DNA of 64,000 bases from Escherichia coli (GTDB lineage: Bacteria > Pseudomonadota > Gammaproteobacteria > Enterobacterales > Enterobacteriaceae). Shown here one piece after another: positions 29,563 to 60,382 of the stretch. A program made the position numbers and the translations under genes. The DNA is taken from NCBI RefSeq assembly GCF_048403405.1, contig NZ_CP183129.1. One strand, given 5' to 3'. The notes under the pieces are model-generated. The model worked only from the letters and a program-made list of their open reading frames with translations, searched no databases and was not told the origin of the DNA. How positions within the stretch are numbered: position 1 is the first letter of the stretch; each line of letters opens with the position of its first letter.

Positions 29563-29985
29563 ATGATCCCATCTCAAATCTCTTTCAACACCCTTCCTGT
29601 CAATGCAACATACGCTTCAGAGACAACAGTTGACACACAAAAATTCTCTGACATCCTCTACTCAGCGGGGTGTTCCCTAAAGGATCTGGCTTATTTGAGC
29701 AGATGTCTGGCATCAATACATCCGACTATCGCCAAAAACATTTATGAAACAGAAAATCTCAGCGATCAAAAATTACTACATATTGATTGCCGTAGTACAA
29801 ATGAAATCAAGATAAATATCTTTTTTGGTCAACAACGAGAAGGATTAATTGAAATTAGTTCTGACACAGTCATTTTTTCGATACTGTCTTCATTGATTGA
29901 CTCCACCATTTCTAAATTTCAACACCAAAACCCCGTTAACGGTTCTGTAAATCCTGACCTATTGTATGAGGATTATACTGATTAA
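29563..29985 (+). CDS. Hypothetical protein, 140 aa, acidic, no recognisable domain
   Basis: ORF 80 bp downstream of the 314-aa ORF on the same strand; by my count about 17 Asp+Glu against about 9 Lys+Arg; same AT-rich context. Confidence 0.5.
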   Translation: MIPSQISFNTLPVNATYASETTVDTQKFSDILYSAGCSLKDLAYLSRCLASIHPTIAKNIYETENLSDQKLLHIDCRSTNEIKINIFFGQQREGLIEISSDTVIFSILSSLIDSTISKFQHQNPVNGSVNPDLLYEDYTD

Positions 29986-30532
29986 ATCCCTCCTGTCGCG
30001 AAAAATGGCCTGCGTTATTGCCAGACGTAATAAAACTTTTGATTAACGTTTCTCGTACTGGTAGCACCTTCATGTACTTTTCTTTTTTACGAAAAATCAA
30101 AAGAGCTAACAAAGGTCATAATTCGCATGAATCATTAATTATTTGTTATTTTCAACATTATTTTTACATTAAGCAGAGATGAATTGCAGTGAAATTCGAC
30201 TTAACTTTTATGAAATGCATTTACTCATGGCTAAAGCCACGTCACAAAAATGCAAATTAGAAGTAGATCACAAATATCTCAATACATCAAATCAAGTTAA
30301 TTTTAAAAATTTAATATTCATGACATTAGTTGACATAACACACTGAATTATAATGAGAATTTGAAAACACACTTTAAACAATCATTTCCCGAAAGACATT
30401 TTGAAAATAGATCAATTGCAACATTACGGTCAGATAAAGACACTCCTGTGATATTAAACCTGTGCCGTTATGAACGGCCATAAATACGACGTGTGTAACT
30501 TATTTTACTCTCTGTCTTACAAAGGATTACCC

Positions 30533-30982
30533 ATGAAGAAAGCAACACTTGTGATTGGCGTTATTGGCGCGGACTGCCATGCAGTAGGCAATAAAGTTCT
30601 GGACCGCGTTTTTAGCAACCATGGCTTCAGAGTCATTAATCTGGGCGTAATGGTCAGCCAGGACGAATATATTGATGCTGCCATTGAAACTGGTGCTGAC
30701 GCGATTGTCGTCTCCTCTATCTATGGGCATGGCGATATCGATTGTCTGGGCATGCGCGAACGCTGCATTGAGCGTGGGCTGGGTAACATCCTGCTCTATG
30801 TGGGCGGTAACCTGGTGGTCGGAAAACATGACTTCGCTGACGTGGAAACCAAGTTCAAAGAGATGGGATTTGATCGCGTCTTTGCCCCAAGTCATGACTT
30901 AGAAGATGTTTGTCAGCTGATGGCCCACGATATCAACCAACGTCATGACGTTGATACTCGCATTCTTGAAGAGGCAATCTGA
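30533..30982 (+). CDS. mamA: Glutamate mutase sigma (S) subunit, B12-binding component
   Basis: Start set at [21 protein letters not shown] (good RBS aaaggattacccATG); carries the cobalamin His-ligand motif DxHxxG (DCHAVG); close resemblance to clostridial GlmS/MutS as I recall them. Confidence 0.9.
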
Positions 30983-32370: not shown

Positions 32371-32388
32371 CAATTAAGGCTGCAATCA

Positions 32389-33834: not shown

Positions 33835-35075
33835 TGAAAATAAAACAGGCTCTGTTCACCGCTGGCTACTCCTCATTCTATTTCGATGACCAGCAGGCGA
33901 TAAAAAACGGAGCGGGTCACGACGGTTTTTTTTATACCGGGGAGCCGGTAACACAGGGGTTTAACGCCGTTCGTCAGGCCGGGGAGTGCGTATCGGTACA
34001 GTTGATTCTGGAAAACGGCGCGGTCGCCGTAGGTGACTGTGCTGCCGTACAGTATTCCGGGGCAGGTGGTCGCGATCCACTGTTCCTCGCAGAGCACTTT
34101 ATTCCGTTCCTCAACGACCATATCAAGCCATTACTGGTAGGCCGCGATGTGGATGCTTTCCTGCCGAATGCCCGTTTCTTCGACAAATTGCGTATTGACG
34201 GCAACTTGCTGCATACCGCCGTGCGCTACGGATTATCACAGGCGCTGCTTGATGCTACCGCGCTGGCAACCGGCCGTCTGAAAACTGAAGTGGTCTGTGA
34301 TGAATGGCAGTTGCCACGCGTGGCGGAATCCATTCCATTATTTGGTCAGAGCGGCGACGATCGATATATCGCCGTCGATAAGATGATCCTTAAGGGCATC
34401 GACGTGCTGCCCCATGCGCTGATTAATAACGTCGAAGAGAAGCTGGGCTTTAAAGGTGAAAAACTGCGCGAATATGTCCGCTGGCTGTCGGATCGTATTC
34501 TGAGCAAGCGCACCAGCGCACGCTACCACCCTACCCTGCACATCGATGTATACGGCACTATCGGTCTGATCTTCGATATGGATCCGCTTCGCTGTGCGCA
34601 ATACATCGCCAGCCTGGAAAAAGAAGCGCAAGGCCTGCCGCTCTACATTGAAGGGCCGGTCGATGCTGGTAACAAGCCCGATCAAATTCGCCTGCTGACC
34701 GCGATTACCAAAGAGCTGACACGCCTCGGTTCCGGCGTGAAAATTGTGGCCGATGAATGGTGTAACACCTACCAGGATATTGTTGATTTCACAGATGCCG
34801 CCAGTTGCCACATGGTGCAAATCAAAACCCCGGATCTGGGCAGTATTCACAACATCGTCGATGCGGTTCTTTACTGCAACAGCCACAGCATGGAAGCGTA
34901 CCAGGGCGGCACCTGCAATGAAACTGATGTCAGTGCCCGCACCTGTGTCCACGTCGCCCTTGCCGCTCGCCCTATGCGTATGCTGGTAAAGCCAGGGATG
35001 GGCTTTGACGAAGGCCTCGATATCGTCTTCAACGAAATGAATCGTACTATCGCGCTGTTGCAGGCTAAGGATTAA
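33834..35075 (+). CDS. mal: 3-Methylaspartate ammonia-lyase (enolase superfamily)
   Basis: 413 aa; ATG overlaps the glmE stop; DCAAVQYSGAGGRDPLF, QSGDDRY, LPHALINNVEEKLG, HMVQIKTPDLG and GGTCNET match MAL as I recall it. Confidence 0.93.
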   Translation: MKIKQALFTAGYSSFYFDDQQAIKNGAGHDGFFYTGEPVTQGFNAVRQAGECVSVQLILENGAVAVGDCAAVQYSGAGGRDPLFLAEHFIPFLNDHIKPLLVGRDVDAFLPNARFFDKLRIDGNLLHTAVRYGLSQALLDATALATGRLKTEVVCDEWQLPRVAESIPLFGQSGDDRYIAVDKMILKGIDVLPHALINNVEEKLGFKGEKLREYVRWLSDRILSKRTSARYHPTLHIDVYGTIGLIFDMDPLRCAQYIASLEKEAQGLPLYIEGPVDAGNKPDQIRLLTAITKELTRLGSGVKIVADEWCNTYQDIVDFTDAASCHMVQIKTPDLGSIHNIVDAVLYCNSHSMEAYQGGTCNETDVSARTCVHVALAARPMRMLVKPGMGFDEGLDIVFNEMNRTIALLQAKD

Positions 35076-35078
35076 CAA

Positions 35079-36449
35079 ATGGCTCGTTCTTTTAAAGTCT
35101 TATCGCCAACGGCAATCCTCGGGTATGGATTCCCGGAAGAGAGCTTCCGTAAAGCGATGGCAGAATCGCCCGATCTGATCGCCGTTGATGCAGGCTCTTC
35201 CGATCCTGGCCCCCACTACCTCGGGGCGGGCAAACCGTTTACCGATCGCGCAGGGGTCAAGCGCGATCTGCGCTATATGATCACCGCAGGCGTGCAAAAT
35301 AATATACCGGTGGTGATCGGAACGGCTGGCGGTTCTGGTGCCGCACCACACCTGGAGTGGTGCCGAGAAATAATTCATGAGATTGCCCAGGAAGAGCACC
35401 TCTCGTTCTCAATGGCGCTGATCCCGGCAGACGTTGACAAAGCCATCGTCCACCAGGCGCTGGATAACGGCAAAATCACGGCGCTGGAGTTTGTCCCGCC
35501 GTTAACCCACGACGCGATTGACGAAAGTACGTATATCGTTGCGCAAATGGGCATCGAACCCTTCCAGCGGGCGCTGAAAGAAGGCGCGCAAGTGGTGCTG
35601 GGCGGGCGCGCTTACGACCCGGCCTGCTTTGCTGCGCTTCCGATCATGCAAGGCTTTGATGAAGGTCTGGCGCTGCATTGTGGGAAAATCCTTGAATGCG
35701 CGGCAATCGCCGCAACGCCCGGCTCAGGCTCTGACTGTGCGATGGGCATCATTGATGACAACGGCTTTACGCTGAAGACATTTAATCCGAAGCGTAAATT
35801 TACCGAAACGTCAGCGGCTGCACACACACTGTATGAGAAATCCGATCCCTACTTCCTGCCTGGACCTGGCGGCGTGTTGAACCTGAAAGGCTGCACATTT
35901 AAAGCGGTCAATGACAGCGAAGTGTACGTCAGCGGTTCTAAGCATGAAGAAACGCCGTATGCCCTGAAACTGGAAGGTGCGCGACGAGTGGGCTTCCGCT
36001 GTCTGACCATCGCAGGAACGCGCGACCCGATCATGATCGCCGGGATCGATAAAATCATCGATGAAGTCAAAACCAGCGTTTCGCGTAACCTGTCGCTCGA
36101 CGATGACAGCATTCGCATCAATTTCCACCTGTACGGCAAAAACGGGGTGATGGGAGACCATGAACCGATGCAAACTGCCGGGCATGAGCTGGGGATTGTC
36201 CTTGATGTAGTTGCACCGACCCAGGAAATTGCCAACAGCGTTTGCTCGCTGGTGCGCTCTACCATGCTGCACTACGGCTATGAAAACCGCATCGCTACCG
36301 CAGGTAATCTGGCGTTCCCGTTCTCCCCTTCTGATATCCAGGGCGGGCCGGTATACGAATTTTCCATATATCACCTGATTGAAGCCAACGACGCTCTGCG
36401 TTTTGATTTCCATATTGAACAGGTGACGCCAGAAGGAGTTCAGGCATGA
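35079..36449 (+). CDS. Uncharacterised protein, probably DUF1446 / AtuA-like family
   Basis: 456-aa ORF starting 4 nt after the MAL stop; family assignment is from memory of AtuA-like N-terminal features and is not verified. Confidence 0.5.
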   Translation: MARSFKVLSPTAILGYGFPEESFRKAMAESPDLIAVDAGSSDPGPHYLGAGKPFTDRAGVKRDLRYMITAGVQNNIPVVIGTAGGSGAAPHLEWCREIIHEIAQEEHLSFSMALIPADVDKAIVHQALDNGKITALEFVPPLTHDAIDESTYIVAQMGIEPFQRALKEGAQVVLGGRAYDPACFAALPIMQGFDEGLALHCGKILECAAIAATPGSGSDCAMGIIDDNGFTLKTFNPKRKFTETSAAAHTLYEKSDPYFLPGPGGVLNLKGCTFKAVNDSEVYVSGSKHEETPYALKLEGARRVGFRCLTIAGTRDPIMIAGIDKIIDEVKTSVSRNLSLDDDSIRINFHLYGKNGVMGDHEPMQTAGHELGIVLDVVAPTQEIANSVCSLVRSTMLHYGYENRIATAGNLAFPFSPSDIQGGPVYEFSIYHLIEANDALRFDFHIEQVTPEGVQA

Positions 36450-36763
36450 AACAGTCAATTGTCTCACTGGCGCAAGTCATTCGTTCGAAAAATGCCGGAC
36501 CTTACGAACTGGTTTTAGATATTTTATTTAAAACCAAAGAAAACTATGAGCGTGTCAAATCATCAGGGCAATTAACCCCAGAACTGATCGCGCGCTTATA
36601 TCATGTTGAACCTGACTTTATTCATCGTATTGTCTGGTTTGATCCTTCTAACGCAGTAAAAATCGTCATGCCACGAGATATTATCTCCGGGAATGTAGGT
36701 GACAATGATGTCTATGGTGCACAGCAACATGCACCTTTATTAAATATGAGTTTCGATTTGTAA
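36446..36763 (+). CDS. Small uncharacterised protein, possibly DUF4387, coupled to the upstream ORF
   Basis: 105-aa ORF whose ATG overlaps the upstream stop (ATGA); family name is a tentative recollection. Confidence 0.45.
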   Translation: MKQSIVSLAQVIRSKNAGPYELVLDILFKTKENYERVKSSGQLTPELIARLYHVEPDFIHRIVWFDPSNAVKIVMPRDIISGNVGDNDVYGAQQHAPLLNMSFDL

Positions 36764-36846
36764 AAATCCGAATACTTTTAGCCAACTGACATCCCGTCAC
36801 TTATTGCAGTTCAACACTTCAGCTATTTGTAAGGTTGTAATAGCAG

Positions 36847-36878
36847 GTAGATGCCTGAATCTCTATTCGGGCATCTAC
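36847..36878 (+). terminator. Intra-operon stem-loop (possible partial terminator or attenuator)
   Basis: 9-bp perfect stem gtagatgcc / ggcatctac with a 14-nt loop, followed by a U-rich but interrupted tract (ttctcctgattctgattt); lies between the small coupled ORF and the transporter. Confidence 0.4.
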
Positions 36879-36923
36879 TTCTCCTGATTCTGATTTATCG
36901 CCGTGCACCTGATGGAGGAAAAA

Positions 36924-38204
36924 ATGAAGAAAATAAGTTTAACCACGATGATTCTTTTGGCGCTGGTACTTGGAATGATTATCGGCGTAGTGCTCAATAA
37001 CACTGCTTCACCGGAAACCGAAAAACTCTATGCGCAAGAAATATCGATATTCACGACGATTTTCTTACGACTGATAAAAATGATTATCGCTCCGTTAGTG
37101 GTCTCTACCCTGGTGGTAGGTATAGCTAAAATGGGCGATGCCAAAGCCCTTGGTCGTATTTTTTCTAAAACACTCTTTTTATTTATTTGCGCCTCATTGC
37201 TGTCAATTGCCTTAGGCTTGATAACAGTAAATTTCTTCATGCCAGGCACAGGAATTAATTTTGTTGCACACGGAGCCGAAACCACCGGAGTGGTCGCGTC
37301 AGAACCCTTTACGCTAAAAGTATTTATTTCGCATGCTTTCCCCACCAGCATTGTCGATGCCATGGCGCACAATGAAATTTTGCAAATCGTGGTGTTCTCA
37401 ATTTTCCTCGGCTGTAGCCTGACGGCGATTGGCGAGAAAGGCAGCGCCATCGTTCACGCCTTAGATTCGCTGGCACATGCCATGTTAAAGCTCACTGGCT
37501 ACGTCATGCTCTTCGCTCCCCTGACCGTATTCGCTGCTATTTCAGCATTGATTGCTGAACGAGGACTGGCAGTTATGGTGAGCGCCGGGATCTTTATGGG
37601 TGAATTTTATTTCACCATGTTATTACTTTGGGTGCTGCTTATCGGTCTGGCCATCGTTTATGTTGGCCCCTGCATCAGACGCCTGACCCGCGCCCTTTCG
37701 GAACCCGCCCTGCTGGCATTTACCACATCCAGTTCTGAAGCGGCTTTTCCGGGAACGCTTGAAAAACTGGAGCAATTTGGCGTTTCCCCCAAAATTGCCA
37801 GCTTTGTCTTACCCATTGGCTACTCATTTAATCTTGTTGGATCAATGGCCTACTGCTCCTTCGCCACAGTTTTCATCGCCCAGGCCTGCAATATCCATTT
37901 ATCCATCGGTGAGCAAATCACCATGCTGTTGATCCTGATGTTGACCTCGAAAGGAATGGCTGGCGTACCACGCGCCTCAATGGTGGTTATCGCCGCCACG
38001 CTCAACCAGTTCAATATTCCGGAAGCGGGGCTGATCTTGCTGATGGGCGTTGATCCGTTCCTTGATATGGGGCGTTCCGCGACAAACGTCATGAGCAACG
38101 CAATGGGCGCTGCGATGGTGAGTCGGTGGGAAGGCGAACATTTCGGCGAGGGTTGTCGGGGTAAAGCATTAAAACCCAATGAATCGAACGTTGCTCTGCC
38201 CTGA
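36924..38204 (+). CDS. Dicarboxylate/amino acid:cation symporter (DAACS family; GltP/DctA-like)
   Basis: Start at MKKISLTTMILL with RBS ggagg 5 nt upstream; about 426-aa polytopic protein; LRLIKMIIAPLV and surrounding TM pattern typical of DctA/GltP family carriers. Confidence 0.8.
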   Translation: MKKISLTTMILLALVLGMIIGVVLNNTASPETEKLYAQEISIFTTIFLRLIKMIIAPLVVSTLVVGIAKMGDAKALGRIFSKTLFLFICASLLSIALGLITVNFFMPGTGINFVAHGAETTGVVASEPFTLKVFISHAFPTSIVDAMAHNEILQIVVFSIFLGCSLTAIGEKGSAIVHALDSLAHAMLKLTGYVMLFAPLTVFAAISALIAERGLAVMVSAGIFMGEFYFTMLLLWVLLIGLAIVYVGPCIRRLTRALSEPALLAFTTSSSEAAFPGTLEKLEQFGVSPKIASFVLPIGYSFNLVGSMAYCSFATVFIAQACNIHLSIGEQITMLLILMLTSKGMAGVPRASMVVIAATLNQFNIPEAGLILLMGVDPFLDMGRSATNVMSNAMGAAMVSRWEGEHFGEGCRGKALKPNESNVALP

Positions 38205-38311
38205 GGGGGATCTTAAGCAATCAGAAGCCAATGACTACGCATTTTTATAAGCCGGATCATGAAGTTAGACGGCAATTAAGTAAAACTAACGTTTAAGGTG
38301 AAAAGTGAAAT

Positions 38312-39964
38312 ATGTCCAAACCATTTATCTGGCAAGAACCGTTTCTACAAAATAAAGACGGTACAGAATATACATTAATTAGCGATCAACATATTACAGT
38401 AACGGAATTAGACGGCGAAGAAGTAATAAAAATCGCTCCTGAAGCATTAACGCTGCTTGCCCGGCAGGCATTTTATGAAGCCTCTTTTTTCTTACGTTCC
38501 GCTCATTTGCAACAGGTCGCCAGCATTCTTAACGATCCGCAGGCCAGTAGTAATGATAAATACGTTGCGTTGCAGTTATTACGTAATGCTGAAGTCTCAG
38601 CAAAAGGGGTATTACCCAACTGTCAGGATACCGGCACCGCAACTATTGTTGCCAGTAAAGGGCAACAGATATGGACGGGAGGTAACGACGCTGAAGCCTT
38701 AAGCAAAGGCATTTACAGTACTTTCCAGGAAAATAACCTGCGCTTTTCACAAAATGCGCCGCTGGATATGTACACCGAAGTCAATACGCAAACCAATCTC
38801 CCGGCGCAGATTGATATCAGCGCTGTCGCTGGTGATGAGTACCATTTTCTCTGTATTAATAAAGGGGGCGGCTCTGCCAATAAAGCCGCGCTTTATCAGG
38901 AAACCAAATCCTTATTGCAACCAGAAAAACTGACCGCATTTTTAATCGAAAAAATGAAATCGCTGGGCACCGCTGCCTGCCCGCCTTACCACATCGCCTT
39001 TGTCGTCGGAGGGCTTTCAGCCGATCAAACCTTAAAAGTTGCCAAGCTGGCCTCAACGAAATATTACGACAATTTGCCCACCAGCGGAAACGAGCAAGGA
39101 CAAGCATTCCGTGATATTGAGCTGGAAAAAGTATTGCTCGAGGCCAGTCAGCAATTTGGTATTGGTGCGCAATTTGGAGGTAAATATTTCGCTCATGATA
39201 TTCGCGTCATTCGTCTGCCGCGTCACGGTGGCTCCTGCCCGATAGCTATGGCGCTCTCCTGTTCTGCCGATCGCAATATCAAAGCAAAAATTAACAAGCA
39301 CGGTATCTGGCTGGAAAAACTCGAACACAATCCGGGGCAATATATTCCAGCCTCACTGCGGGAAGAAAATCACGCGCAACATGTACAACTGGATCTAAAC
39401 CGTCCGTTGCGTGACGTGATGCAGGATCTCGCCAGATTACCGGTAGGCACCCGCGTGTCGTTAAGTGGTCCCATCGTAGTGGCACGCGATATCGCCCACG
39501 CCAAAATAAAAGCGCGGCTGGATAACGCCGAACCGATGCCGGATTACCTGAAGCATCATATTGTCTATTACGCTGGCCCGGCGAAAACACCGGAGAACAT
39601 GGCCTGCGGTTCACTGGGTCCAACCACGGGCGGTCGAATGGACGGTTATGTCGATACCTTCCAGGCGGCTGGCGGCAGTCTGGTGATGTTATCGAAAGGT
39701 AACCGCAGCCAGCAGGTCACCGATGCCTGTCACAAACATGGTGGCTTCAATCTGGGTAGTATTGGCGGTGCAGCTGCGTTACTGGCGCAAGAATATGTCA
39801 AAAGTCTGCGTTGCCTGGAATACCCGGAGCTGGGTATGGAAGCGGTGTGGATGATGGAAGTGGAAAATCTGCCCGCATTCATCCTGGTAGATGATAAAGG
39901 CAATAATTTCTTTAGTCAGTTTGAGCAGCAACACCGCTGCGCCAGTTGCCCTGCGGGACATTAA
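38312..39964 (+). CDS. fumD: Class I fumarate hydratase-type hydratase, probable mesaconase (FumD-like)
   Basis: 550 aa, same size class as FumA/FumB; N-terminal [22 protein letters not shown]... and [10 protein letters not shown] ([4Fe-4S] hydro-lyase signature region) recognised. Confidence 0.85.
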
Positions 39965-39973
39965 GGAAAATGA

Positions 39974-40576
39974 ATGGAAGCGCGAATTTCAACTGAACGG
40001 CATGTGCAGCGCCAGCAGAAATTGAAGGAACAGGTCGATACGCGCGTCGCGGCGGCGATAGAGAAAAAAGGGATTTTGATTGTTTTCACCGGCAATGGCA
40101 AAGGGAAATCCACTGCCGCGTTTGGTACTGTGACGCGCGCGGTGGGTCATGGCAAAACGGTGGGGGTTGCGCAGTACATCAAGGGGCAATGGGACAACGG
40201 CGAATACAACCTTCTCCAGCCGCTGGGGGTTGAGTTTCATATTATGGGAACCGGTTTTACCTGGGAGACACAGAACCGGCAAGCGGATATCGACGCGGCG
40301 AAAGAGGTCTGGTCGGAAAGCAAACGGATGCTGGCTGACAAGCGTTACGACTTAGTGGTGCTTGATGAGCTGACCTATATGCTGGCTTACCATTATCTGG
40401 ACACCGAAGAAGTGATCGCTTCTCTGCAAAACCGCCCGGCACAACAAAGTGTCATTGTCACCGGACGCGGTTGCCACAGTCAGATATTAAAAATGGCGGA
40501 TACGGTCAGCGAAATCCGCCCCGTCAAACATGCTTTTGATAACGGCATTCAGGCGCAGCCGGGTATCGACTGGTAA
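39974..40576 (+). CDS. Cob(I)yrinic acid a,c-diamide / cob(I)alamin adenosyltransferase (CobA/BtuR family)
   Basis: 200 aa; P-loop GNGKGKST; near-colinear with E. coli BtuR as I recall it (IIVFTGNGKGKTTAAFG...GFTWETQNR...VVLDELTYM...VKHAFD). Confidence 0.88.
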   Translation: MEARISTERHVQRQQKLKEQVDTRVAAAIEKKGILIVFTGNGKGKSTAAFGTVTRAVGHGKTVGVAQYIKGQWDNGEYNLLQPLGVEFHIMGTGFTWETQNRQADIDAAKEVWSESKRMLADKRYDLVVLDELTYMLAYHYLDTEEVIASLQNRPAQQSVIVTGRGCHSQILKMADTVSEIRPVKHAFDNGIQAQPGIDW

Positions 40577-40579
40577 TAA

Positions 40580-40606
40580 CTGCGCCTGGCATCCCGCCAG
40601 GCGCAG
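40580..40606. terminator. Bidirectional terminator between the adenosyltransferase gene and the convergent LysR gene
   Basis: Perfect 11-bp inverted repeat ctgcgcctggc / gccaggcgcag with a 5-nt loop, flanked by A/T; abuts both stop codons. Confidence 0.7.
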
Positions 40607-40609
40607 GTT

Positions 40610-41515
40610 TTACATCTCCTGCGGTACGACCGATTTCGCCAGCAACCATTCACGAAATTGCTGCAAGTGCGGCGAGTCAGACTTCTCTTCCTGCCACGTC
40701 ATAATAAAACGATTACCGGTACGAATAGGCACATCACAGGGAATCACCATATCGCCACTATCCAAATCATGTTGAATAGCGAACCGTGGTAACAGCGCCA
40801 CGCCGAGATTAGAGCGCACGGCGGCAATCAGCATTGAAAGCAAATCGAAACGTGGTCCGTTATTGACCAGCGGACTGCTAACGCCAGATAAAGCAAACCA
40901 CTCTTCCCAGCCAGTAATACGGGTGCTTTGATGCAGAAGTGGTAACTCAGTAAGCAGTTCTGCCACTGACAGTTTTTGATCGGACATTGCAAGCAAACTG
41001 CCGCTGCATACCGGCAAAATCTCCTCATCAAAGAGATATTCTACTTCCGCCCAGGGCGCGCAAAAATTTTCGCGCATAATGACAGCATCGTACTCCCGAT
41101 TAAGAAAATCGCCGTTATTAGCTAAAGAATGAATATTAACAATAATATCGGGATGTAACTTTGTGAATTCATGTAAATTTGGGATTAACCAGTGGGTACT
41201 AAAAGTAGGATTAACGGCAAGTTCAATAACCTGAACCGTAGGCTGCCAGGTCATAATGGTATTGGTATCGCGTTCCAGCTTATTTAATGTTTCTTTTACT
41301 ATCCCCAGGTAATACTTCCCTGCATCATTAAGAAAAATACGTTTTTTAGAGTGTGAAAATAACGGAGTATGTAAAAATTCCTCCAGCGCACTCACTTGTC
41401 TGAATACAGCACTTTGGGTTAACGCTAACTCCTCTGCCGCTCTGGTATAACTTTCATGACGTGCGACGACCTCAAAAGTCACCAGCAGCTCCGTTTTAGG
41501 TATTTTTCCTCGCAT
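40610..41515 (-). CDS. LysR-type transcriptional regulator
   Basis: 301 aa; N-terminal HTH (ESYTRAAEELALTQSAVFRQVSALEE) and LysR substrate-binding domain. Confidence 0.88.
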   Translation of the reverse strand: MRGKIPKTELLVTFEVVARHESYTRAAEELALTQSAVFRQVSALEEFLHTPLFSHSKKRIFLNDAGKYYLGIVKETLNKLERDTNTIMTWQPTVQVIELAVNPTFSTHWLIPNLHEFTKLHPDIIVNIHSLANNGDFLNREYDAVIMRENFCAPWAEVEYLFDEEILPVCSGSLLAMSDQKLSVAELLTELPLLHQSTRITGWEEWFALSGVSSPLVNNGPRFDLLSMLIAAVRSNLGVALLPRFAIQHDLDSGDMVIPCDVPIRTGNRFIMTWQEEKSDSPHLQQFREWLLAKSVVPQEM

Positions 41516-41554
41516 AATGCCGTCCCTTAAAAATAGTTTAAACCATCAAAAATA

Positions 41555-41576
41555 CATTACTTATTACGAAGTAATG
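41555..41576 (-). promoter_or_regulatory. Dyad-symmetric site upstream of the LysR gene (candidate autoregulatory operator)
   Basis: Perfect inverted repeat cattactt-attacg-aagtaatg centred about 50 bp upstream of the LysR start codon, in AT-rich DNA. Confidence 0.4.
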
Positions 41577-42080
41577 GTAACCAAAGCAGCAATAAATAAT
41601 TTATAAGAATCATGATTGACATTTATAACCCAGTAAGCCTGGCGTGACAAATATCTTAATCAGATAATAATAATCCGAAAAGCACAGCGCCTTTCGAATT
41701 ATCCGGAATCACATTAAGTGAAAATTATTAAATTGATATCATTTATCATATCTGTGGATATTATGATAAACAATCAACAAAGATTTTATTTTTGATTTAT
41801 AGCATATCCCTCTAAGAATTTTTGCGATGCTGCAATATCCGGGTAAAGACCCGATCCTGGCTGACAAATGGCACGACTTGACGATAAGCGGTGAACATCG
41901 CTTTTGTTGATTTACTTAACGCTACGGTCAAACGCTGGGAAGCCAGTGCATCAGGTAACGATTCGAAATTCGCCGTCGTTCTTATTCGTGGCTTGCGGTC
42001 GGTTGCGGCAATCCACAGTGGCTGTGGTCATGCAGTCAAGCCAGCGGTCAGATTTCGACCGTGGTTAACATTTAAGGCAT

Positions 42081-48503: not shown

Positions 48504-48690
48504 CCTGCATTTCTTTTGTAGGCCGGATAAGGCATTCACGCCGCATCCGGCGCTGTTTGCCTGATGCGACGCTTGCGCGTCTTATCAGGCCTACGATTTC
48601 TGCATTTCTTTTGTAGGCCGGATAAGGCGTTCACGCCGCATCCGGCACTGGTTGCCTGATGCGACGCTTGTGCGTCTTATCAGGCCTGGG
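48504..48690. repeat. Two tandem BIME-type units (paired REP palindromes) in the sdhB-sucA spacer
   Basis: About 93-bp unit ...tttgtaggccggataaggcRttcacgccgcatccggcRctgKttgcctgatgcgacgcttgYgcgtcttatcaggcc... occurs twice in direct tandem with 4 substitutions; each unit holds two inverted REP sequences. Confidence 0.8.
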
Positions 48691-52628: not shown

Positions 52629-53912
52629 ATGGCTGATACAAAAGCAAAACTCACCCTCAACGGGGACACAGCTGTTGAACTGGATGTGCTGAAAGGCACG
52701 CTGGGTCAAGATGTTATTGATATCCGTACTCTCGGTTCAAAAGGTGTGTTCACCTTTGACCCTGGCTTCACTTCAACCGCATCCTGCGAATCTAAAATTA
52801 CTTTTATTGATGGTGATGAAGGTATTTTGCTGCACCGCGGTTTCCCGATCGATCAGCTGGCGACCGATTCTAACTACCTGGAAGTTTGTTACATCCTGCT
52901 GAATGGTGAAAAACCGACTCAGGAACAGTATGACGAATTTAAAACTACGGTGACCCGTCATACCATGATCCACGAGCAGATTACCCGTCTGTTCCATGCT
53001 TTCCGTCGCGACTCGCATCCAATGGCAGTCATGTGTGGTATTACCGGCGCGCTGGCGGCGTTCTATCACGACTCGCTGGATGTTAACAATCCTCGTCATC
53101 GTGAAATTGCCGCGTTCCGCCTGCTGTCGAAAATGCCGACTATGGCCGCGATGTGTTACAAGTATTCCATTGGTCAGCCATTTGTTTACCCGCGCAACGA
53201 TCTCTCCTATGCCGGTAACTTCCTGAATATGATGTTCTCCACGCCGTGCGAACCGTATGAAGTTAATCCGATTCTGGAACGTGCTATGGACCGTATTTTG
53301 ATCCTGCACGCTGACCATGAACAGAACGCCTCCACCTCCACCGTGCGTACCGCTGGCTCTTCGGGGGCGAACCCGTTTGCCTGTATCGCAGCAGGTATTG
53401 CTTCACTGTGGGGACCTGCGCACGGTGGTGCTAACGAAGCGGCGCTGAAAATGCTGGAAGAAATCAGCTCCGTTAAACACATTCCGGAATTTGTTCGTCG
53501 TGCGAAAGACAAAAATGACTCTTTCCGCCTGATGGGCTTCGGGCACCGCGTGTACAAAAATTACGACCCGCGCGCCACCGTAATGCGTGAAACCTGCCAT
53601 GAAGTGCTGAAAGAGCTGGGTACCAAAGATGACCTGCTGGAAGTGGCTATGGAGCTGGAAAACATCGCGCTGAACGACCCGTACTTTATCGAGAAGAAAC
53701 TCTATCCGAACGTCGATTTCTACTCTGGTATCATCCTGAAAGCGATGGGTATTCCGTCTTCTATGTTCACCGTGATCTTCGCTATGGCACGCACCGTTGG
53801 CTGGATCGCCCACTGGAGCGAAATGCACAGTGACGGTATGAAGATTGCCCGTCCGCGTCAACTGTATACAGGATATGAAAAACGCGACTTTAAAAGCGAC
53901 ATCAAGCGTTAA
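52629..53912 (+). CDS. gltA: Citrate synthase (type II)
   Basis: 427 aa, [36 protein letters not shown]...; recognised as GltA. Confidence 0.97.
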
Positions 53913-53941
53913 TGGTTGATTGCTAAGCCGTTTACTTTCCG

Positions 53942-53972
53942 GACCCGCCTTTAATAGAGCGGGTTCTTTTTT
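53942..53972 (+). terminator. Rho-independent terminator of gltA
   Basis: Stem gacccgc / gcgggtt with loop ctttaataga, followed by CTTTTTTAT. Confidence 0.7.
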
Positions 53973-54301
53973 ATATGGCTGAACATAATAAATTGTAAAA
54001 ATTAAACCAGATGCAAATACCCATTAATAAGGTGAAAAAATGTGACAAGTCACATACTGAGCAGAATGATAAGTTTATTTTTATACTTTCATGCCGGTAG
54101 CATTGTTAACCCAATGAAAATTATGCATATCCATCCCACCCCATCTTTCATCTCATTAAACAATAAATTTATGCACTCAATTATTCCATTCTTTATATAA
54201 CAAGCTTTTTAATATTGTTAAATAAAACCAAATACATTCAACTGTCAGTTAATATATTCTTGCCTCGCAACACTCTATCTCATTATTTAAAGGACTCAGC
54301 T

Positions 54302-54868
54302 ATGTTTAAAGGACAAAAAACATTGGCCGCACTGGCCGTATCTCTGCTGTTCACTGCACCTGTTTATGCGGCTGATGAAGGATCCGGTGAAATTCACTTT
54401 AAAGGTGAAGTTATTGAAGCACCGTGTGAAATACATCAGGATGATATTGATAAAGAAGTTGAACTCGGTCAGGTGACCACCAGCCACATTAATCAGTCGC
54501 ATCACAGCGATGCCGTTGCTGTCGACCTGCGCTTAGTCAACTGCGATCTGGAAAACTCCAACAACGGTTCCGGCGGCAAGATTTCTAAAGTTGCAGTCAC
54601 CTTTGACAGCTCAGCGAAAACCACCGGCGCAGATCCGATTCTCAACAACACCAGCACGGGTGAAGCGACCGGTGTCGGCGTGCGTTTAATGAATAAAGAT
54701 CAAAGCAATATCGTTTTAGGCACCGCTACTCCAGATATCGACCTGGCACCAACCTCCAGCGAACAAACGTTAAATTTCTTTGCGTGGATGGAACAAATTG
54801 ATCAGGCTACGCCCGTAACACCAGGCGCAGTTACGGCGAATGCGACCTACGTACTGGATTATAAATAA
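54302..54868 (+). CDS. ybgD: Fimbrial major subunit (type 1 / Sfm-like), YbgD
   Basis: Start set at MFKGQKTLAALAVSLLFTAPVYA (signal peptide; RBS aaaggactcagctATG), 188 aa; fimbrial subunit fold inferred from similarity to FimA-like proteins. Confidence 0.88.
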   Translation: MFKGQKTLAALAVSLLFTAPVYAADEGSGEIHFKGEVIEAPCEIHQDDIDKEVELGQVTTSHINQSHHSDAVAVDLRLVNCDLENSNNGSGGKISKVAVTFDSSAKTTGADPILNNTSTGEATGVGVRLMNKDQSNIVLGTATPDIDLAPTSSEQTLNFFAWMEQIDQATPVTPGAVTANATYVLDYK

Positions 54869-54918
54869 GTATCACTTTGGCGGCGTCATCGCCGCCTTTC
54901 TTCAAATATTTATCAGGT

Positions 54919-57378
54919 ATGGACACCGTGAATATTTATCGACTCTCTTTTATATCCTGTCTGGTCATGGCGATGCCTTGCGCATTGGCGGTCGAATTCA
55001 ATCTGAATGTTCTCGATAAATCAATGCGCGACCGCATTGATATTTCATTATTAAAGGAAAAAGGAGTCATTGCTCCCGGTGAATATTTTGTTAGCGTTGC
55101 GGTGAATAACAACCAAATCAGTAATGGGCAAAAAATCAACTGGCAAAAAAAGGGGGACAAAACCATTCCATGCATCAATGATTCACTGGTCGATAAATTT
55201 GGTTTAAAACCAGATATCCGTCAGTCCTTGCCACAGATAGATCGGTGTATTGATTTCAGTTCCCGACCTGAAATGCTCTTCAATTTCGATCAAGCCAATC
55301 AGCAACTGAATATCACTATTCCACAAGCCTGGCTGGCGTGGCACTCAGATAACTGGACTCCCCCCTCAACATGGAAAGAAGGTGTCGCCGGCGTCCTGAT
55401 GGACTACAACCTGTTTGCTAGCAGCTACCGCCCACAGGATGGTAGCAACAGCACTAACCTGAACGCCTATGGAACAGCCGGAATTAACGCGGGAGCATGG
55501 CGTTTACGCAGTGATTACCAATTGAATCAGACCGATAGCGATGATAACCATGAACAGTCAGGCGAAATATCACGCACCTATCTTTTTCGTCCATTACCGC
55601 AATTAGGTTCAAAATTAACCCTTGGTGAAACGGATTTCAGTTCCAATATTTTCGACGGCTTTTCTTATACCGGCGCGGCACTGGCAAGTGACGATCGGAT
55701 GTTACCGTGGGAGCTACGCGGCTACGCCCCACAAATCAGCGGCATTGCACAAACCAACGCCACCGTCACCGTGAGTCACTCAGGGCGAGTTATTTACCAG
55801 AAAAAAGTCCCACCAGGTCCGTTTATCATTGATGACCTTAATCAGTCCGTCCAGGGTACGTTGGATGTCAAAGTGACGGAAGAAGATGGTCGGGTGAACA
55901 ATTTCCAGGTTTCGGCAGCATCGACTCCCTTCCTGACTCGCCAGGGACAGGTTCGCTATAAATTGGCCGCGGGTCAGCCACGGCCCTCCATGTCACATCA
56001 AACTGAAAATGAAACCTTTTTTAGCAATGAAGTTTCCTGGGGGATGCTGTCAAATACCTCGCTGTACGGCGGCCTGCTGATTTCGGGTGACGACTACCAT
56101 TCTGCCGCAATGGGTATCGGGCAAAATATGCTCTGGCTTGGTGCATTGTCGTTTGATGTCACCTGGGCCAGTAGTCAGTTTGATACTCAGCAGGACGAGC
56201 GGGGCTTAAGTTACCGCTTTAATTACAGCAAACAAGTGGATGCCACTAACAGCACGATTTCGCTCGCCGCTTATCGCTTCTCAGATCGTCATTTTCACAG
56301 CTACGCCAACTATCTGGATCACAAATACAACGACAACGATGCGCAGGACGAAAAACAGACGATCAGCTTATCCGTGGGGCAACCGATTACCCCACTGAAC
56401 TTCAATCTGTACGCCAACCTGCTGCATCAAACCTGGTGGAATGCAGACGCCTCCACGACCGCCAACATCACGGCGGGTTTTAATGTTGATATTGGTAACT
56501 GGAGAGATATCTCGATCTCGACGTCATTCAATACAACCCATTACGAAGATAAAGATCGCGACAATCAGATTTACCTGTCGATTTCGCTCCCCTTCGGTAA
56601 CGGGGGGCGGGTCGGTTATGACATGCAAAACAGTAATCACAGCACCACGCACCGCATGTCGTGGAATGATACGTTAGATGAACGTAATAGCTGGGGCATG
56701 TCTACCGGACTGCAATCCGACCGTCCGGATAATGGAGCCCAGGTGAGCGGTAACTATCAGCACCTGAGTTCAGCGGGTGAGTGGGATATTTCTGGTACCT
56801 ATGCCGCCAATGATTACAGTTCCGTCAGCAGCAGCTGGAGCGGTTCTTTCACGGCAACTCAATATGGTGCAGCGTTCCATCGTCGCAGCTCCACCAATGA
56901 ACCACGTCTGATGGTCAGTACCGATGGCGTGGCAGATATTCCGGTTCAGGGCAATCTCGACTACACCAACCATTTTGGCATTGCGGTGGTGCCGTTGATT
57001 TCCAGTTATCAGCCTTCCACCGTGTCGGTGAACATGAATGATTTACCCGACGGCGTAACAGTGGCAGATAACGTTATCAAAGAAACGTGGATTGAAGGCG
57101 CGATAGGTTACAAATCGCTGGCTTCCCGTTCCGGTAAAGACGTTAACGTCATCATTCGCAACGCCAGCGGTCAGTTCCCTCCCCTCGGTGCGGATATCCG
57201 CCAGGATGATAGCGGCATTAGCGTGGGGATGGTTGGCGAGGAAGGACATGCCTGGTTAAGTGGAGTCGCTGAAAATCAACAATTTACCGTGGTCTGGGGT
57301 GATAGCCAGCGTTGCTCGATCCATCTTCCTGAACATATGGAAGACACCGCAAATCGCCTGATTTTACCTTGTCATTAA
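54919..57378 (+). CDS. ybgQ: Fimbrial outer-membrane usher, YbgQ
   Basis: About 819-aa ORF with typical usher N-terminus; start ambiguous (ATG 54919 or GTG 54928; the ORF opens at 54877). Confidence 0.85.
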   Translation: MDTVNIYRLSFISCLVMAMPCALAVEFNLNVLDKSMRDRIDISLLKEKGVIAPGEYFVSVAVNNNQISNGQKINWQKKGDKTIPCINDSLVDKFGLKPDIRQSLPQIDRCIDFSSRPEMLFNFDQANQQLNITIPQAWLAWHSDNWTPPSTWKEGVAGVLMDYNLFASSYRPQDGSNSTNLNAYGTAGINAGAWRLRSDYQLNQTDSDDNHEQSGEISRTYLFRPLPQLGSKLTLGETDFSSNIFDGFSYTGAALASDDRMLPWELRGYAPQISGIAQTNATVTVSHSGRVIYQKKVPPGPFIIDDLNQSVQGTLDVKVTEEDGRVNNFQVSAASTPFLTRQGQVRYKLAAGQPRPSMSHQTENETFFSNEVSWGMLSNTSLYGGLLISGDDYHSAAMGIGQNMLWLGALSFDVTWASSQFDTQQDERGLSYRFNYSKQVDATNSTISLAAYRFSDRHFHSYANYLDHKYNDNDAQDEKQTISLSVGQPITPLNFNLYANLLHQTWWNADASTTANITAGFNVDIGNWRDISISTSFNTTHYEDKDRDNQIYLSISLPFGNGGRVGYDMQNSNHSTTHRMSWNDTLDERNSWGMSTGLQSDRPDNGAQVSGNYQHLSSAGEWDISGTYAANDYSSVSSSWSGSFTATQYGAAFHRRSSTNEPRLMVSTDGVADIPVQGNLDYTNHFGIAVVPLISSYQPSTVSVNMNDLPDGVTVADNVIKETWIEGAIGYKSLASRSGKDVNVIIRNASGQFPPLGADIRQDDSGISVGMVGEEGHAWLSGVAENQQFTVVWGDSQRCSIHLPEHMEDTANRLILPCH

Positions 57379-57393
57379 TTAAGGAAATGAAAA

Positions 57394-58125
57394 ATGACAT
57401 TTATGAAAGGACTTCCCCTTTTGTTGTTGATTGCCAGTCTGTGCAGCTACGCTGCGCTACAACCCGATCGCACTCGCATTGTGTTTAACGCTAATGATAA
57501 AGCCACCAGCCTACGAGTGGATAATCGTAGCGATAAACTCCCCTACCTCGCTTATTCCTGGCTCGAAAATGAAAAAGGGGAGAAAAGCGACGATCTTCTG
57601 GTCGCCCTGCCACCGATACAACGTCTGGAACCGAAAGCAACAACGCAGGTGCGGATAGTCAAGCAAGCCTCGACCGCGAAATTACCGGGCGATCGCGAAA
57701 CGCTATTTTTCTACAATATGCGTGAAATTCCTCCCTCCCCAGAAAAAAACAGCGGCCATGCCGTTCTGCAGGTCGCCATCCAGAGTCGTATCAAGGTGTT
57801 CTGGAGACCGTCCGCGTTACGCAAGAAAGCAGGAGAAAAAGTCGAGCTACAGTTACAAGTCAGCCAGCAGGGCAATCAACTTAACTTAAAAAACCCGACC
57901 GGCTATTACCTGACAATCGCCTACTTGGGACGAAATGAGCAAGCTGTTCTCCCGGGCTTCAAAACCGTGATGGTTGCGCCTTTTAGTACAGTAATTACAA
58001 ACACCGGAAGTTATAGCGGCAGTCAGTTTTATCTCGGTTATATGGATGATTACGGCGCGTTACGCATGACGACGCTCAATTGCAACGGACATTGCCGTTT
58101 ACAAGCAGTGGAGGCGAAGAAATGA
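57394..58125 (+). CDS. ybgP: Fimbrial periplasmic chaperone (PapD-like), YbgP
   Basis: 243 aa with signal peptide; recognised as a PapD/FimC-family chaperone. Confidence 0.9.
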
Positions 58126-59183
58126 GTACTGGCAAAGGATTGTTGCTCGTCATCTGTCTGTTATTTCTGCCATTGAAGTCTGCGCTAGCGCTGAACTGCT
58201 ATTTTGGTACTTCCGGCGGAACGGTAGAAAAATCGGAAGCGATTCAACCCTTTGCTGTGCCAGGTAATGCCAAACCCGGCGATAAGATCTGGGAATCTGA
58301 CGATATTAAAATTCCCGTCTATTGTGACAACAATACCAACGGCAACTTTGAAAGCGAACATGTCTACGCATGGGTAAACCCCTACCCGGGGGTACAGGAT
58401 CGTTATTATCAACTCGGCGTGACATACAATGGTGTCGATTACGATGCCAGTCTGGGGAAAAGCCGCATCGACACCAACCAGTGTATCGACAGTAAGAACA
58501 TTAACATTTATACCCCTGAGCAGATTATCGCGATGGGCTGGCAGAACAAAATATGCTCGGGTGACCCCGCTAATATTCACATGTCGCGAACCTTTCTTGC
58601 TCGTATGCGGTTATACGTTAAGATTCGCGAAATACCGCCGCATGATTATCAAAGTACGCTTAGCGACTACATCGTCGTGCAATTTGATGGTGCCGGTAGC
58701 GTTAACGAAGACCCTACCGCCCAAAACCTGAAATACCATATTACTGGTCTGGAAAACATTCGTGTACTGGATTGCAGCGTCAATTTTTCTATTTCACCAG
58801 AAACACAGGTGATTGATTTTGGTAAATTTAACCTGCTGGATATTCGCCGCCACACAATGTCGAAAACATTCAGTATTAAGACGACAAAATCACAAAATGA
58901 CCAGTGCACCGACGGATTTAAGGTCAGCTCTTCGTTTTATACCGAAGAAACATTGATTGAAGAGGATAAAGCACTGCTGATTGGTAATGGACTGAAGCTA
59001 CGTTTGCTGGATGAAAATTCTTCACCCTATACTTTCAACAAATACAGCGAATATGCTGATTTCACCAGCGATATGCTGATCTACGAAAAAACCTATACGG
59101 CTGAACTTTCGTCCATTCCCGGCACCCCCATCGAAGCGGGTCCCTTCGATACAGTGGTGCTTTTTAAGATTAACTATAACTAA
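58122..59183 (+). CDS. ybgO: Fimbrial minor subunit / putative tip adhesin, YbgO
   Basis: Start set at [23 protein letters not shown] (353 aa); ATG overlaps the chaperone stop. Confidence 0.85.
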
Positions 59184-59335
59184 TTTATCATGATGCCCTT
59201 TGCAGTCAGTAAAGGGCATCTCTTTCAGAAAATTGCTGATTTTCCCCTTTTCCTTGATTGCTGTTATTTTTTCCTGGCCCGGCTTTCTTTATGCTGTATC
59301 GATACACCAAAGAGAAAATAATGAGGGAGCGAAGG

Positions 59336-60382
59336 ATGCCAGTTTTGCAGTGGGGAATGTTATGTGTGCTCTCACTTCTCCTTTCTATTGGTTTCCTCGC
59401 GGTTCATCTCCCGGCGGCGCTATTACTTGGGCCGATGATCGCCGGGATCATCTTTAGTATGCGCGGAATTACTCTGCAACTTCCCCGCTCCGCTTTTCTC
59501 GCCGCCCAGGCCATTCTTGGCTGCATGATTGCGCAAAACCTCACTGGTTCGATTCTCACCACGCTGGCCGTCAACTGGCCGATCGTGCTTACAATTTTAC
59601 TGGTGACGCTGCTTTCCAGCGCCATTGTTGGGTGGCTACTGGTGCGCTATAGCTCATTACCAGGAAATACTGGTGCCTGGGGTTCTTCTCCTGGCGGCGC
59701 GGCGGCAATGGTCGCTATGGCGCAAGATTACGGCGCAGATATTCGCCTGGTGGCGTTTATGCAATATCTGCGAGTGCTGTTCGTCGCAGGGGCCGCTGTT
59801 CTGGTCACCCGCATGATGCTGGGCGATAACGCTGAAGCGGTTAACCAGCAGATCGTCTGGTTTCCGCCAGTGAGCATTAATCTCCTGCTTACGATTTTGC
59901 TCGCGGTCGTTGCCGGTACAGTGGGATGCCTGCTGCGTCTTCCTTCCGGCACGATGCTCATCCCGATGCTGGCGGGCGCAGTGCTCCAGTCTGGTCAGCT
60001 CATCACCATCGAACTACCGGAATGGCTGCTGGCGATGGCGTATATGGCAATTGGTTGGCGGATTGGTCTTGGTTTCGATAAACAAATATTACTGCGGGCA
60101 TTGCGCCCACTGCCACAAATCCTGCTGTCGATTTTTGCTCTGCTGGCTATTTGTGCGGGTATGGCGTGGGGACTGACCCGATTTATGCACATTGATTTTA
60201 TGACTGCCTACCTCGCCACCAGCCCCGGCGGGCTTGATACCGTGGCGGTCATCGCCGCAGGGAGCAATGCCGATATGGCGCTCATTATGGCGATGCAAAC
60301 CCTGCGCCTGTTCAGTATTTTGCTGACGGGACCTGCCATTGCGCGGTTTATTTCAACCTATGCGCCGAAACGTACGGCCTAG
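59336..60382 (+). CDS. abrB: AbrB-family membrane protein (putative regulator/transporter)
   Basis: Start set at [16 protein letters not shown] (348 aa) rather than the ORF's first ATG; polytopic membrane protein with internal duplication. Confidence 0.85.

Follow-up and report, generated by a model that had tools for sequence, protein, structure and literature searches.

Gene content of the locus

The stretch of 64,000 nucleotides from Escherichia coli that was analysed here (the window) carries, directly downstream of gltA, the complete operon of the Ybg fimbria, ybgDQPO (Table 1). The gltA stop codon ends at position 53912 (gltA 52629-53912), and the region 53913-59183 begins at the next base and closes with the ybgO stop. 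This is a known E. coli fimbrial operon and not a novel one; what is notable is its divergence from K-12 and O157, which is far above that of its neighbours. The human blood isolate E. coli GN02461 matches the window at 100% identity, and the gene coordinates are those of the PGAP annotation in the identical record NZ_CP095533.1. The strains 4621 and MS 69-1 also carry the operon in identical form.

Table 1. Genes and sequence features of the ybg locus, with positions in the window
Feature	Position	Strand	Description
gltA-ybgD spacer	53913-54301	+	AT-rich, presumed promoter/regulatory region
gltA intrinsic terminator	53941-53972	+	stem GGACCCGCC/GGCGGGTTC, then T run
ybgD	54302-54868	+	major pilin, 188 aa, signal peptide 1-23
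pilin-usher hairpin	54879-54903	+	GGCGGCG-TCAT-CGCCGCC, then TTTCTTC
ybgQ	54919-57378	+	outer-membrane usher, 819 aa
ybgP	57394-58125	+	periplasmic PapD-like chaperone, 243 aa
ybgO	58122-59183	+	two-domain tip adhesin, 353 aa
hairpin downstream of ybgO	59192-59220	+	12-bp stem GATGCCCTTTGC-AGTCA-GTAAAGGGCATC

An earlier note on this DNA had described a complete fimbrial operon next to gltA with four intact genes. The gene identities and their order are correct according to the open reading frames, the Pfam domains and the comparison with K-12. None of the four genes contains an internal stop, and the protein lengths are close to those of K-12 (here/K-12: YbgD 188/188, YbgQ 819/818, YbgP 243/242 and YbgO 353/353 aa). 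The comparison with K-12, proposed in the note as a search for hidden defects, revealed neither frameshifts nor premature stops, and the K-12 allele itself proved to be a different, minority allele. The start-stop overlap of the chaperone and tip genes is real and consists of the ATGA at 58122-58125, with GGAGG just upstream. The signal peptides assigned to the subunit, chaperone and tip protein were also found, but the usher, which the note had left out, has one too: N-termini resembling signal peptides and ending in A-x-A are present in all four proteins (VYA/A, ALA/V, SYA/A and ALA/L). The GC content of the coding genes ranges from 44.5 to 49%, lowest in ybgO, and is equal to or a little under the 50.7% of the window.

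Structural proteins and classification

The pilin YbgD matches the Pfam family Fimbrial with 105.5 bits, and among solved structures it is closest to FimA and PapA (E = 1e-16). YbgD alleles vary in the middle of the protein, but not in the N-terminal segment or the C-terminal strand. The segment ADEGSGEIHFKGEVIEAPCEIH, which directly follows the signal peptide and is unchanged in four alleles, is the putative donor strand. YbgQ contains all three usher domains, PapC_N (119 bits), Usher (624 bits) and PapC_C (50 bits), and aligns end to end with PapC (residues 1-805 of 809) at 527 bits, compared to 277 bits for FimD. The chaperone YbgP consists of PapD_N and PapD_C, has PapD as its best solved relative (E = 9e-49) and scores 169 bits against PapD versus 98 against FimC. 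In the alignment to PapD, the cleft motifs DRTR (Arg8) and IKVFWRP (Lys112) correspond to DRTR and IKLFYRP of PapD, and the C-terminal CNGxC cysteine pair is conserved.

These usher and chaperone bit scores, together with the assignment in the literature (PMC5216030, PMC4578781), place Ybg in the pi (Pap-like) clade of Nuccio and Baumler, as far as can be judged by sequence similarity. A classification as a gamma4 fimbria was considered and dropped, since both the comparison with PDB chains and the literature point to pi. Ybg has been described as a "core-associated" pi-class fimbria in E. coli (PMC3559732, PMC5216030, PMC4578781), and the assembly of YbgQ has been measured in vivo (PMC11014939).

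YbgO is composed of a signal peptide (residues 1-23), a receptor-binding domain (about 24-217) and a pilin domain (about 218-353). Two solved chains, 9rx0 and 9rww, align with residues 24 to 217/222 (E = 1e-130), and both constructs begin precisely at YbgO residue 24. A literature search found no paper for the PDB entries 9RX0, 9RWW, 9RWU and 9RWE and none on the structure of YbgO. The C-terminal part (218-353) reaches 24.0 bits for the Fimbrial domain, just below the Pfam cut-off of 25.6 bits. An AlphaFold model built from 10 Escherichia and Superficieibacter sequences was unusable (pLDDT 48.7), and the prediction was rerun with 51 homologues, giving a pLDDT of 88.9. The best Foldseek matches of this model are nearly all two-domain chaperone-usher tip adhesins (CupB6, LpfD, FimH, CsuE, PapG and CfaE). 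YbgO therefore has the architecture of a two-domain tip adhesin, with a receptor-binding domain and a pilin domain that is predicted to lack a donor strand. With an usher, a PapD-like chaperone, a pilin and such an adhesin, the operon contains the components of a classical chaperone-usher system, for which fibre assembly and adhesion can be predicted by analogy.

Compared with the Ybg operon of K-12 (b0719-b0716), the locus between gltA and abrB, the four-gene order, the protein lengths (within one codon), the ATGA overlap, the pilin-usher hairpin and the AT-rich leader are shared. The sequences differ, with identities to K-12 of 79% for YbgD, 87% for YbgP, 96% for YbgQ, 97.5% for YbgO and 67% for the leader; YbgD is 72% identical to that of O157. 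P (Pap) pili of uropathogenic E. coli, the pi prototype, provide the best solved usher and chaperone homologues and resemble Ybg in the residues of the chaperone cleft, the cysteine pair at the C-terminus of the chaperone, the two-domain adhesin (PapG) and a hairpin after the major-subunit gene. Unlike Pap, Ybg is minimal, having no PapH terminator, no PapK, PapE or PapF adaptors, no PapJ and no papI/papB regulators; its leader lacks GATC, its genes are ordered pilin-usher-chaperone-adhesin, and the receptor domain of YbgO has no sequence match to PapG. Type 1 fimbriae (fimAICDFGH) share the assembly pathway, the FimA-like pilin and the FimH-like architecture of the adhesin, but differ in the usher clade, the fimB/fimE recombinase genes, the invertible fimS element and the FimF/FimG adaptors, of which the latter three have no counterpart in Ybg.

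By homology to these systems, all four products would be exported by Sec, and YbgP would bind YbgD and YbgO in the periplasm through donor-strand complementation. YbgQ would form the outer-membrane pore. YbgO, in which the receptor-binding domain takes the place of the N-terminal donor strand, would enter first and become the tip, and YbgD, polymerising below it through donor-strand exchange, would make up the shaft.

Upstream region, hairpins and expression

The strongly AT-rich region of about 390 bp that had been noted upstream of the operon measures 389 bp and has a GC content of 31.9%, with a minimum of 30.0% over 300 bp; a GC content this low occurs in only 1.1% of 389-bp segments. Such AT-rich regulatory DNA is a feature of H-NS-silenced cryptic fimbrial operons. 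The block ACCCGCC...GGCGGGT followed by a T run, which is part of the gltA terminator (-15.6 kcal/mol, z = -2.6), is kept in the Escherichia alleles with an adjacent gltA, and the remaining spacer is not conserved. Transcription of gltA presumably ends at this terminator and is thereby kept apart from the regulatory region of ybg; transcription of the operon would start downstream of the terminator within the AT-rich spacer. A sigma-70 scan of the leader gave one weak match (54042-54070), with fewer matches than in shuffled sequence, and the alignment of seven leader alleles, with a mean column identity of 58%, contains no conserved -35/-10 elements. For this reason, no promoter is claimed.

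Two known switching mechanisms were considered and ruled out. Phase variation of the Pap type through Dam and Lrp is not expected, since there are no GATC sites in 53913-54301 and no papI/papB-like ORFs between gltA and ybgD. An invertible switch of the Fim type is likewise not supported because recombinase genes are missing and the inverted repeats found in the leader are weak, namely imperfect AT-rich ones with 75-81% complementarity and none convincing as a switch.

The pilin-usher hairpin was found by the terminator scan and is unusually stable (-16.1 kcal/mol, z = -4.1, equalled by none of 200 shuffles). In eight aligned sequences, five of the seven stem pairs are invariant. The sixth is kept in all eight, with one two-sided change (C-G to U-A) and one G-U wobble, and the seventh, loop-closing pair is broken in three. 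Putatively, this hairpin acts as a partial terminator or stabilises the mRNA and thereby sets the ratio of pilin to usher; it would probably result in more mRNA for the pilin than for the usher, chaperone and adhesin. It may stabilise the mRNA instead of terminating transcription, since the tail downstream of it is not T-rich in E. albertii and Superficieibacter. The hairpin downstream of ybgO (-22.6 kcal/mol, z = -4.0, also with 0 of 200 shuffles equal) likely marks the end of the operon transcript; its tail, TCTTTC, is only weakly T-rich, and this hairpin was not among the terminators called by the pattern scan. An Rfam search gave no match in the ybg region. Translation of the chaperone and adhesin would be coupled via the ATGA overlap.

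The ybg operon of K-12 has been called cryptic and silenced by H-NS, in a general statement on K-12 fimbriae (PMC3559732, citing Korea 2010). Judging from K-12, expression of the operon in laboratory culture is probably low. Regulation and silencing in K-12 may not carry over to the window, however, because the leaders are only 67% identical. Ybg expressed from K-12 is cited as promoting adhesion (Korea 2010, via PMC6033998 and PMC8249706), and elevated levels of ybg transcripts were found in STEC associated with HUS (PMC6033998).

Distribution and loss

The arrangement gltA-ybgDQPO-(abrB)-nei is found in E. coli, E. whittamii, E. albertii, Escherichia sp. E1V33 and Superficieibacter electus; counted by lineage, synteny extends to three other Escherichia species or clades besides E. 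coli, plus E. albertii and Superficieibacter. In a survey of 5,426 complete genomes, ybgD had a match in 4,185, with a coverage of at least 80% in 4,174, and no detectable ybgD was present in approximately 1,240. The earlier note's statement that the intactness of the locus varies by lineage is borne out by a deletion in PM06121, where a 3' remnant of ybgO alone remains, by the complete absence of the operon in WB61, by a split usher gene in the E. whittamii representative and by a ybgO pseudogene in Shigella flexneri (PMC6854044).

Divergence and allelic types

Compared with K-12, dS amounts to 1.56 in ybgD, 0.77 in ybgP, 0.50 in ybgO and 0.25 in ybgQ, whereas it is only 0.08-0.12 in the flanking genes. 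Against O157, all four genes reach values of 1.4-2.0. For scale, flanking genes of E. coli and E. albertii differ by a dS of 0.58-0.68, as against 1.56 for ybgD between the window and K-12. Throughout, dN/dS is low (0.03-0.12 in all four genes, compared with K-12, O157 and six other alleles), which indicates that the operon is kept by selection and is not decaying. The value for ybgO against K-12 is 0.031, and its protein is nearly invariant although the nucleotides diverge by 9%.

The divergence from K-12 sets in and ends sharply, at the gltA stop and shortly before abrB, and forms a mosaic: identity is 98-99% in the 5' part of ybgQ and only 64-68% in the adjoining ybgD. The distribution of ybgD identities is strongly multimodal and nearly empty between 80 and 95%. 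The gene falls into three discrete types, of which the type of the window accounts for about 67% of carriers and that of K-12 for a minority of about 22%. In the window, the commonest of the three YbgD types is part of a rare mosaic haplotype. O157 and Escherichia sp. E1V33, a cryptic species, share 98-100% identity across the operon (about 6.3 kb), and their flanks diverge at species level. The ybg locus is a hotspot of recombination and allelic replacement bounded by gltA and abrB.

Taken together, an intact pi-class Ybg operon with Pap/Fim-like assembly, probably poor laboratory expression, purifying selection and a mosaic haplotype in a recombination hotspot is the reading to which we assign a probability of roughly 0.88.

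It could be argued that the operon is a silent relic, intact here by chance and heading for the decay seen in the deleted and disrupted lineages. Loss is indeed common, as shown by the genomes without detectable ybgD and by the remnant, absence, split usher and pseudogene described above, and the source cited for K-12 terms its operon cryptic (PMC3559732). Such a relic would not be expected to retain a low dN/dS in four genes at divergences of dS up to about 2, a YbgO protein 97.5% identical to that of K-12 and the same locus throughout the genus Escherichia, which makes this explanation very unlikely. A recent lineage-specific genomic island, foreign to the ancestral Escherichia DNA, would account for the AT-rich leading edge, the high divergence from other E. 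coli and the presence/absence polymorphism. It is nevertheless hardly credible given the position and gene order common to five taxa, the lack of any integrase, tRNA or IS gene or flanking direct repeats in 53913-59335, and a coding GC content close to that of the window. Insertion as an island was rejected on the basis of synteny, and allelic replacement by homologous recombination is supported instead.

Higher dS values are typical of poorly expressed genes. The divergence from K-12 and O157 could therefore stem from a local increase in mutation rate or from relaxed constraint on codons, requiring neither old alleles nor recombination, and the GC3 of the ybg genes (0.46-0.53), below that of gltA (0.56) and abrB (0.61), fits this idea. 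However, the neighbouring genes nei and pxpA, which are poorly expressed as well, have a dS of only 0.08-0.12, and neither the sharp edges, the mosaic, the nearly empty identity range nor the operon shared by O157 and E1V33 within species-divergent flanks would be expected from it, so that we regard it as highly improbable.

Implications

With its discrete types and with alleles shared between species, the locus is a candidate for balancing selection on a "cryptic" adhesin. Tentatively, and at somewhat less than even odds, this could be a long-lived trans-species balanced polymorphism, in which at least three pilin haplotype classes predate the splits of the Escherichia species, are under purifying selection and are exchanged among lineages of E. 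coli and its sister species through homologous recombination, with gltA and abrB as the limits. If this were the case, the supposedly cryptic fimbria would have to be expressed often enough in nature for frequency-dependent selection by immunity or phage, with a varying shaft and a constant adhesin. Strong purifying selection on the four genes, the near-invariant adhesin and the variable shaft suggest that Ybg fimbriae are used in nature. A search for the YbgO receptor therefore appears worthwhile, especially since structures of the binding domain exist.

For the window itself, the value of these results is modest, as it contains an annotated, previously described and intact operon. K-12 is a poor reference for ybg because it carries a minority pilin type, and SNP- or GWAS-style mapping to the K-12 ybg genes will make a replaced allele look like "high variant density" (compare PMC12547504).

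Gene content and intactness

In the ORF listing, gltA (52629-53912) is followed by a 389-bp gap and four co-directional ORFs up to 59183, with abrB (59336-60382) and then nei, opposite strand, as 3' neighbours of the operon. The earlier note had described the ybg genes as intact, with a start-stop overlap between chaperone and tip gene and signal peptides on subunit, chaperone and tip protein. No internal stops were found, all lengths equal those of K-12 within one codon, and the comparison with K-12, named beforehand as the check on intactness, uncovered no hidden frameshifts. The overlap was located as an ATGA, and signal-peptide-like N-termini are present on all four products, usher included. 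Both the observation and its interpretation hold.

Features of the ybg region, with protein identity and dS relative to K-12
Feature	Position	Description	Support	Identity	dS
gltA terminator	53941-53972	hairpin, then T run			
ybgD	54302-54868	fimbrial protein, 188 aa	PGAP; Pfam Fimbrial	79%	1.56
pilin-usher hairpin	54879-54903	GGCGGCG-TCAT-CGCCGCC, then TTTCTTC; between ybgD and ybgQ			
ybgQ	54919-57378	usher, 819 aa	PGAP; Pfam PapC_N+Usher+PapC_C	96%	0.25
ybgP	57394-58125	chaperone, 243 aa	PGAP; Pfam PapD_N+PapD_C	87%	0.77
ybgP/ybgO overlap	58122-58125	ATGA, GGAGG upstream; listed as translational coupling			
ybgO	58122-59183	fimbrial protein, 353 aa	PGAP; sub-threshold Pfam Fimbrial, residues 218-353 only	97.5%	0.50
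operon-end hairpin	59192-59220	12-bp			
gltA, abrB, nei, pxpA		flanks		96-100%	0.08-0.12

The operon itself was already known. Ybg is a 'core-associated' chaperone-usher fimbria with a single locus in nearly all E. coli, many strains having a copy that is not intact; undamaged copies are found mostly in commensal and diarrhoeagenic strains, and also in the phylogroup D UPEC UMN026 (Wurpel et al. 2013, PMC3559732). The ybg region of E. coli GN02461 (NZ_CP095533.1; human blood, USA) is 100% identical to the window, from which this strain differs by one base (61577) across 11.3 kb. Since the window operon shares 98.6% identity with its counterpart in PCN033, a strain of phylogroup D (PMC4578781), GN02461 probably belongs to phylogroup D.

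Divergent haplotypes in E. coli

The divergence from K-12 is strikingly uneven, and the genes are undamaged. A sliding-window comparison bounds the divergent block exactly at the gltA stop on the left and near 59240 on the right. Inside it the sequence is mosaic, with the 5' part of ybgQ 98-99% identical to K-12 and the adjoining ybgD 64-68%. Compared with O157, dS reaches 1.4-2.0 in all four ybg genes. Judged from the coding sequences, the operon is selectively maintained, and its decay is argued against by a dN/dS of only 0.03-0.12 throughout.

Among 5,426 complete genomes, 4,762 gave a match to any part of the region, and in 4,155 the match covered at least 80% of it. Only seven reached at least 99% identity to the window region, six of them essentially identical. 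Taken by itself, ybgD shows a multimodal distribution: 2,808 genomes have at least 95% identity to the window, 42 fall at 80-95% and 1,335 at 60-80%, and therefore the window carries the majority pilin type. K-12-type genomes (74% identity) make up about 926 of the last group and O157-type genomes (71%) about 411, a split drawn from whole-operon identity bands. K-12 ybg is an atypical reference allele. Loss variants include a deletion sparing the last 130 ybgO codons and complete absence, which bears out the remark that intactness varies between lineages.

Occurrence in other species and origin of the haplotypes

When GTDB species representatives were scanned with a YbgO alignment, the operon turned up at six loci (E. 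coli E69, Escherichia sp. E1V33, 'E. coli' SCPM-O-B-8794, E. whittamii, E. albertii and Superficieibacter electus), in all six at the gltA/nei position. YbgO has homologues at about 60% identity in Enterobacter, Citrobacter, Salmonella and Kluyvera, and a paralogue at 37% in E. coli. In E. albertii (L011, 742-3386) and 'E. coli' SCPM-O-B-8794 (L009, 525-3214), three extra genes lie directly upstream of ybgD, where E. coli has gltA, encoding a Zn-dependent dehydrogenase, an RraA-like protein and a GntR/FadR-family regulator. The junction between gltA and ybgD thus varies in its own right. In the E. whittamii Sa2BVA5 locus (L010, 1847-4289), ybgQ is broken into two overlapping ORFs (239 and 632 aa), which reflects either a pseudogene with a frameshift or a mistake in the assembly, the genome being a draft.

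The ybg gene trees disagree with the flank trees. O157 Ybg proteins share 97-99.5% identity with their counterparts in E1V33, which is a cryptic Escherichia species, and a block of about 6.3 kb (approximately 2400-8700 of the O157:H7 Z1504 locus), spanning the gltA 3' end, the operon and the abrB 5' half, is 98-100% identical between the two, with flanks at 85-97%. This is a clean whole-operon exchange between species, in either direction. Between E. coli and E. albertii the flanks have a dS of 0.58-0.68, well under the ybgD value of 1.56 between two E. coli alleles; therefore, the allele classes appear to predate the species splits or to have come from outside the genus. Balancing selection is a tentative explanation for the haplotype pattern, to which we would give about one chance in three. 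Published work reflects this pattern only in part, as 'high variant density in ybgP' (PMC12547504); what is added here are discrete, deeply diverged haplotypes exchanged between species.

Leader and transcript elements

The region upstream of ybgD is AT-rich, as had been noted: its GC content is 31.9% compared to 50.7% window-wide, within the lowest 1.1% of same-size windows. The gltA terminator is the sole well-conserved stretch of this spacer across alleles, and leader identity to K-12 is 67%. In many genomes with the window-type ybgD, the alignment starts only at query base 233-298 (operon match list, rows H10-H17); therefore, the distal part of this leader (53913-54301 in full) has its own variants, independent of pilin type. 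A promoter scan and the alignment of leader alleles placed no promoter in the spacer with confidence. The spacer contains no GATC sites and is flanked by no regulator or recombinase genes, so Pap-type and Fim-type phase switches are unsupported. Many chaperone-usher operons of commensal E. coli have been called cryptic and repressed by H-NS (Korea 2010, as cited in PMC3559732), and raised ybg transcript levels are reported in HUS-associated STEC (PMC6033998).

The pilin-usher hairpin (-16.1 kcal/mol, z = -4.1) was found in every allele and species examined. Across an eight-sequence alignment, five stem pairs never vary and a sixth is preserved throughout, once via a two-sided change. By analogy with papA/fimA, we infer a partial terminator or mRNA stabiliser, which would lift pilin output relative to the assembly proteins. 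The operon-end hairpin probably terminates the transcript.

Protein identities

YbgD is a FimA/PapA-like pilin. YbgQ aligned end to end with PapC and is nearer to it (527 bits) than to FimD (277 bits), and the nearest relative of YbgP is PapD (E = 9e-49), whose Arg8 and Lys112 cleft motifs and C-terminal cysteine pair it shares. These matches fit the literature, which places ybg in the pi clade (PMC5216030, PMC4578781). YbgQ relies on the TAM for its assembly (PMC11014939).

YbgO residues 24-217/222 match the solved chains 9rx0 and 9rww (E = 1e-130); therefore, its receptor-binding domain has already been crystallised. The two entries cover residues 24-222 (window 58191-58787), and the predicted cleavage after Ala23 corresponds to the start residue of the crystallised constructs. 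Related adhesin domains are covered by 9RWU/9RWV and 9RWE; no publications on these YbgO-related entries were found in the literature searched. The Foldseek PDB set comprised releases up to 2026-04-08, with 9RX0, 9RWW, 9RWU/9RWV and 9RWE absent. The best PDB matches of the YbgO AlphaFold model (51 sequences, pLDDT 88.9) were almost all two-domain tip adhesins, namely CupB6, LpfD, FimH, CsuE, PapG and CfaE. Together with the solved-domain match, the model supports the earlier reading of YbgO as a tip protein. K-12 ybg, once expressed, promotes adhesion, as relayed in PMC6033998 and PMC8249706.

Other features of the window

Between sucD and cydA lies a roughly 13-kb block (28538-41515; AT-rich edges 27701-30640 and 41391-41940) coding for a LysR regulator, cobO, a class I fumarate hydratase, a dicarboxylate symporter, AtuA/DUF4387 proteins, methylaspartate ammonia-lyase and methylaspartate mutase (glmS/E/L). 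It looks like a mesaconate-pathway glutamate fermentation module; K-12 presumably carries other genes, mngRAB, at this site. Rfam matches at 48521-48686 and 19563-19701 comprise two tandem naRNA4 (REP-type) elements and a cpoB/ybgF intercistronic RNA thermometer, both usual in this stretch of the E. coli chromosome.
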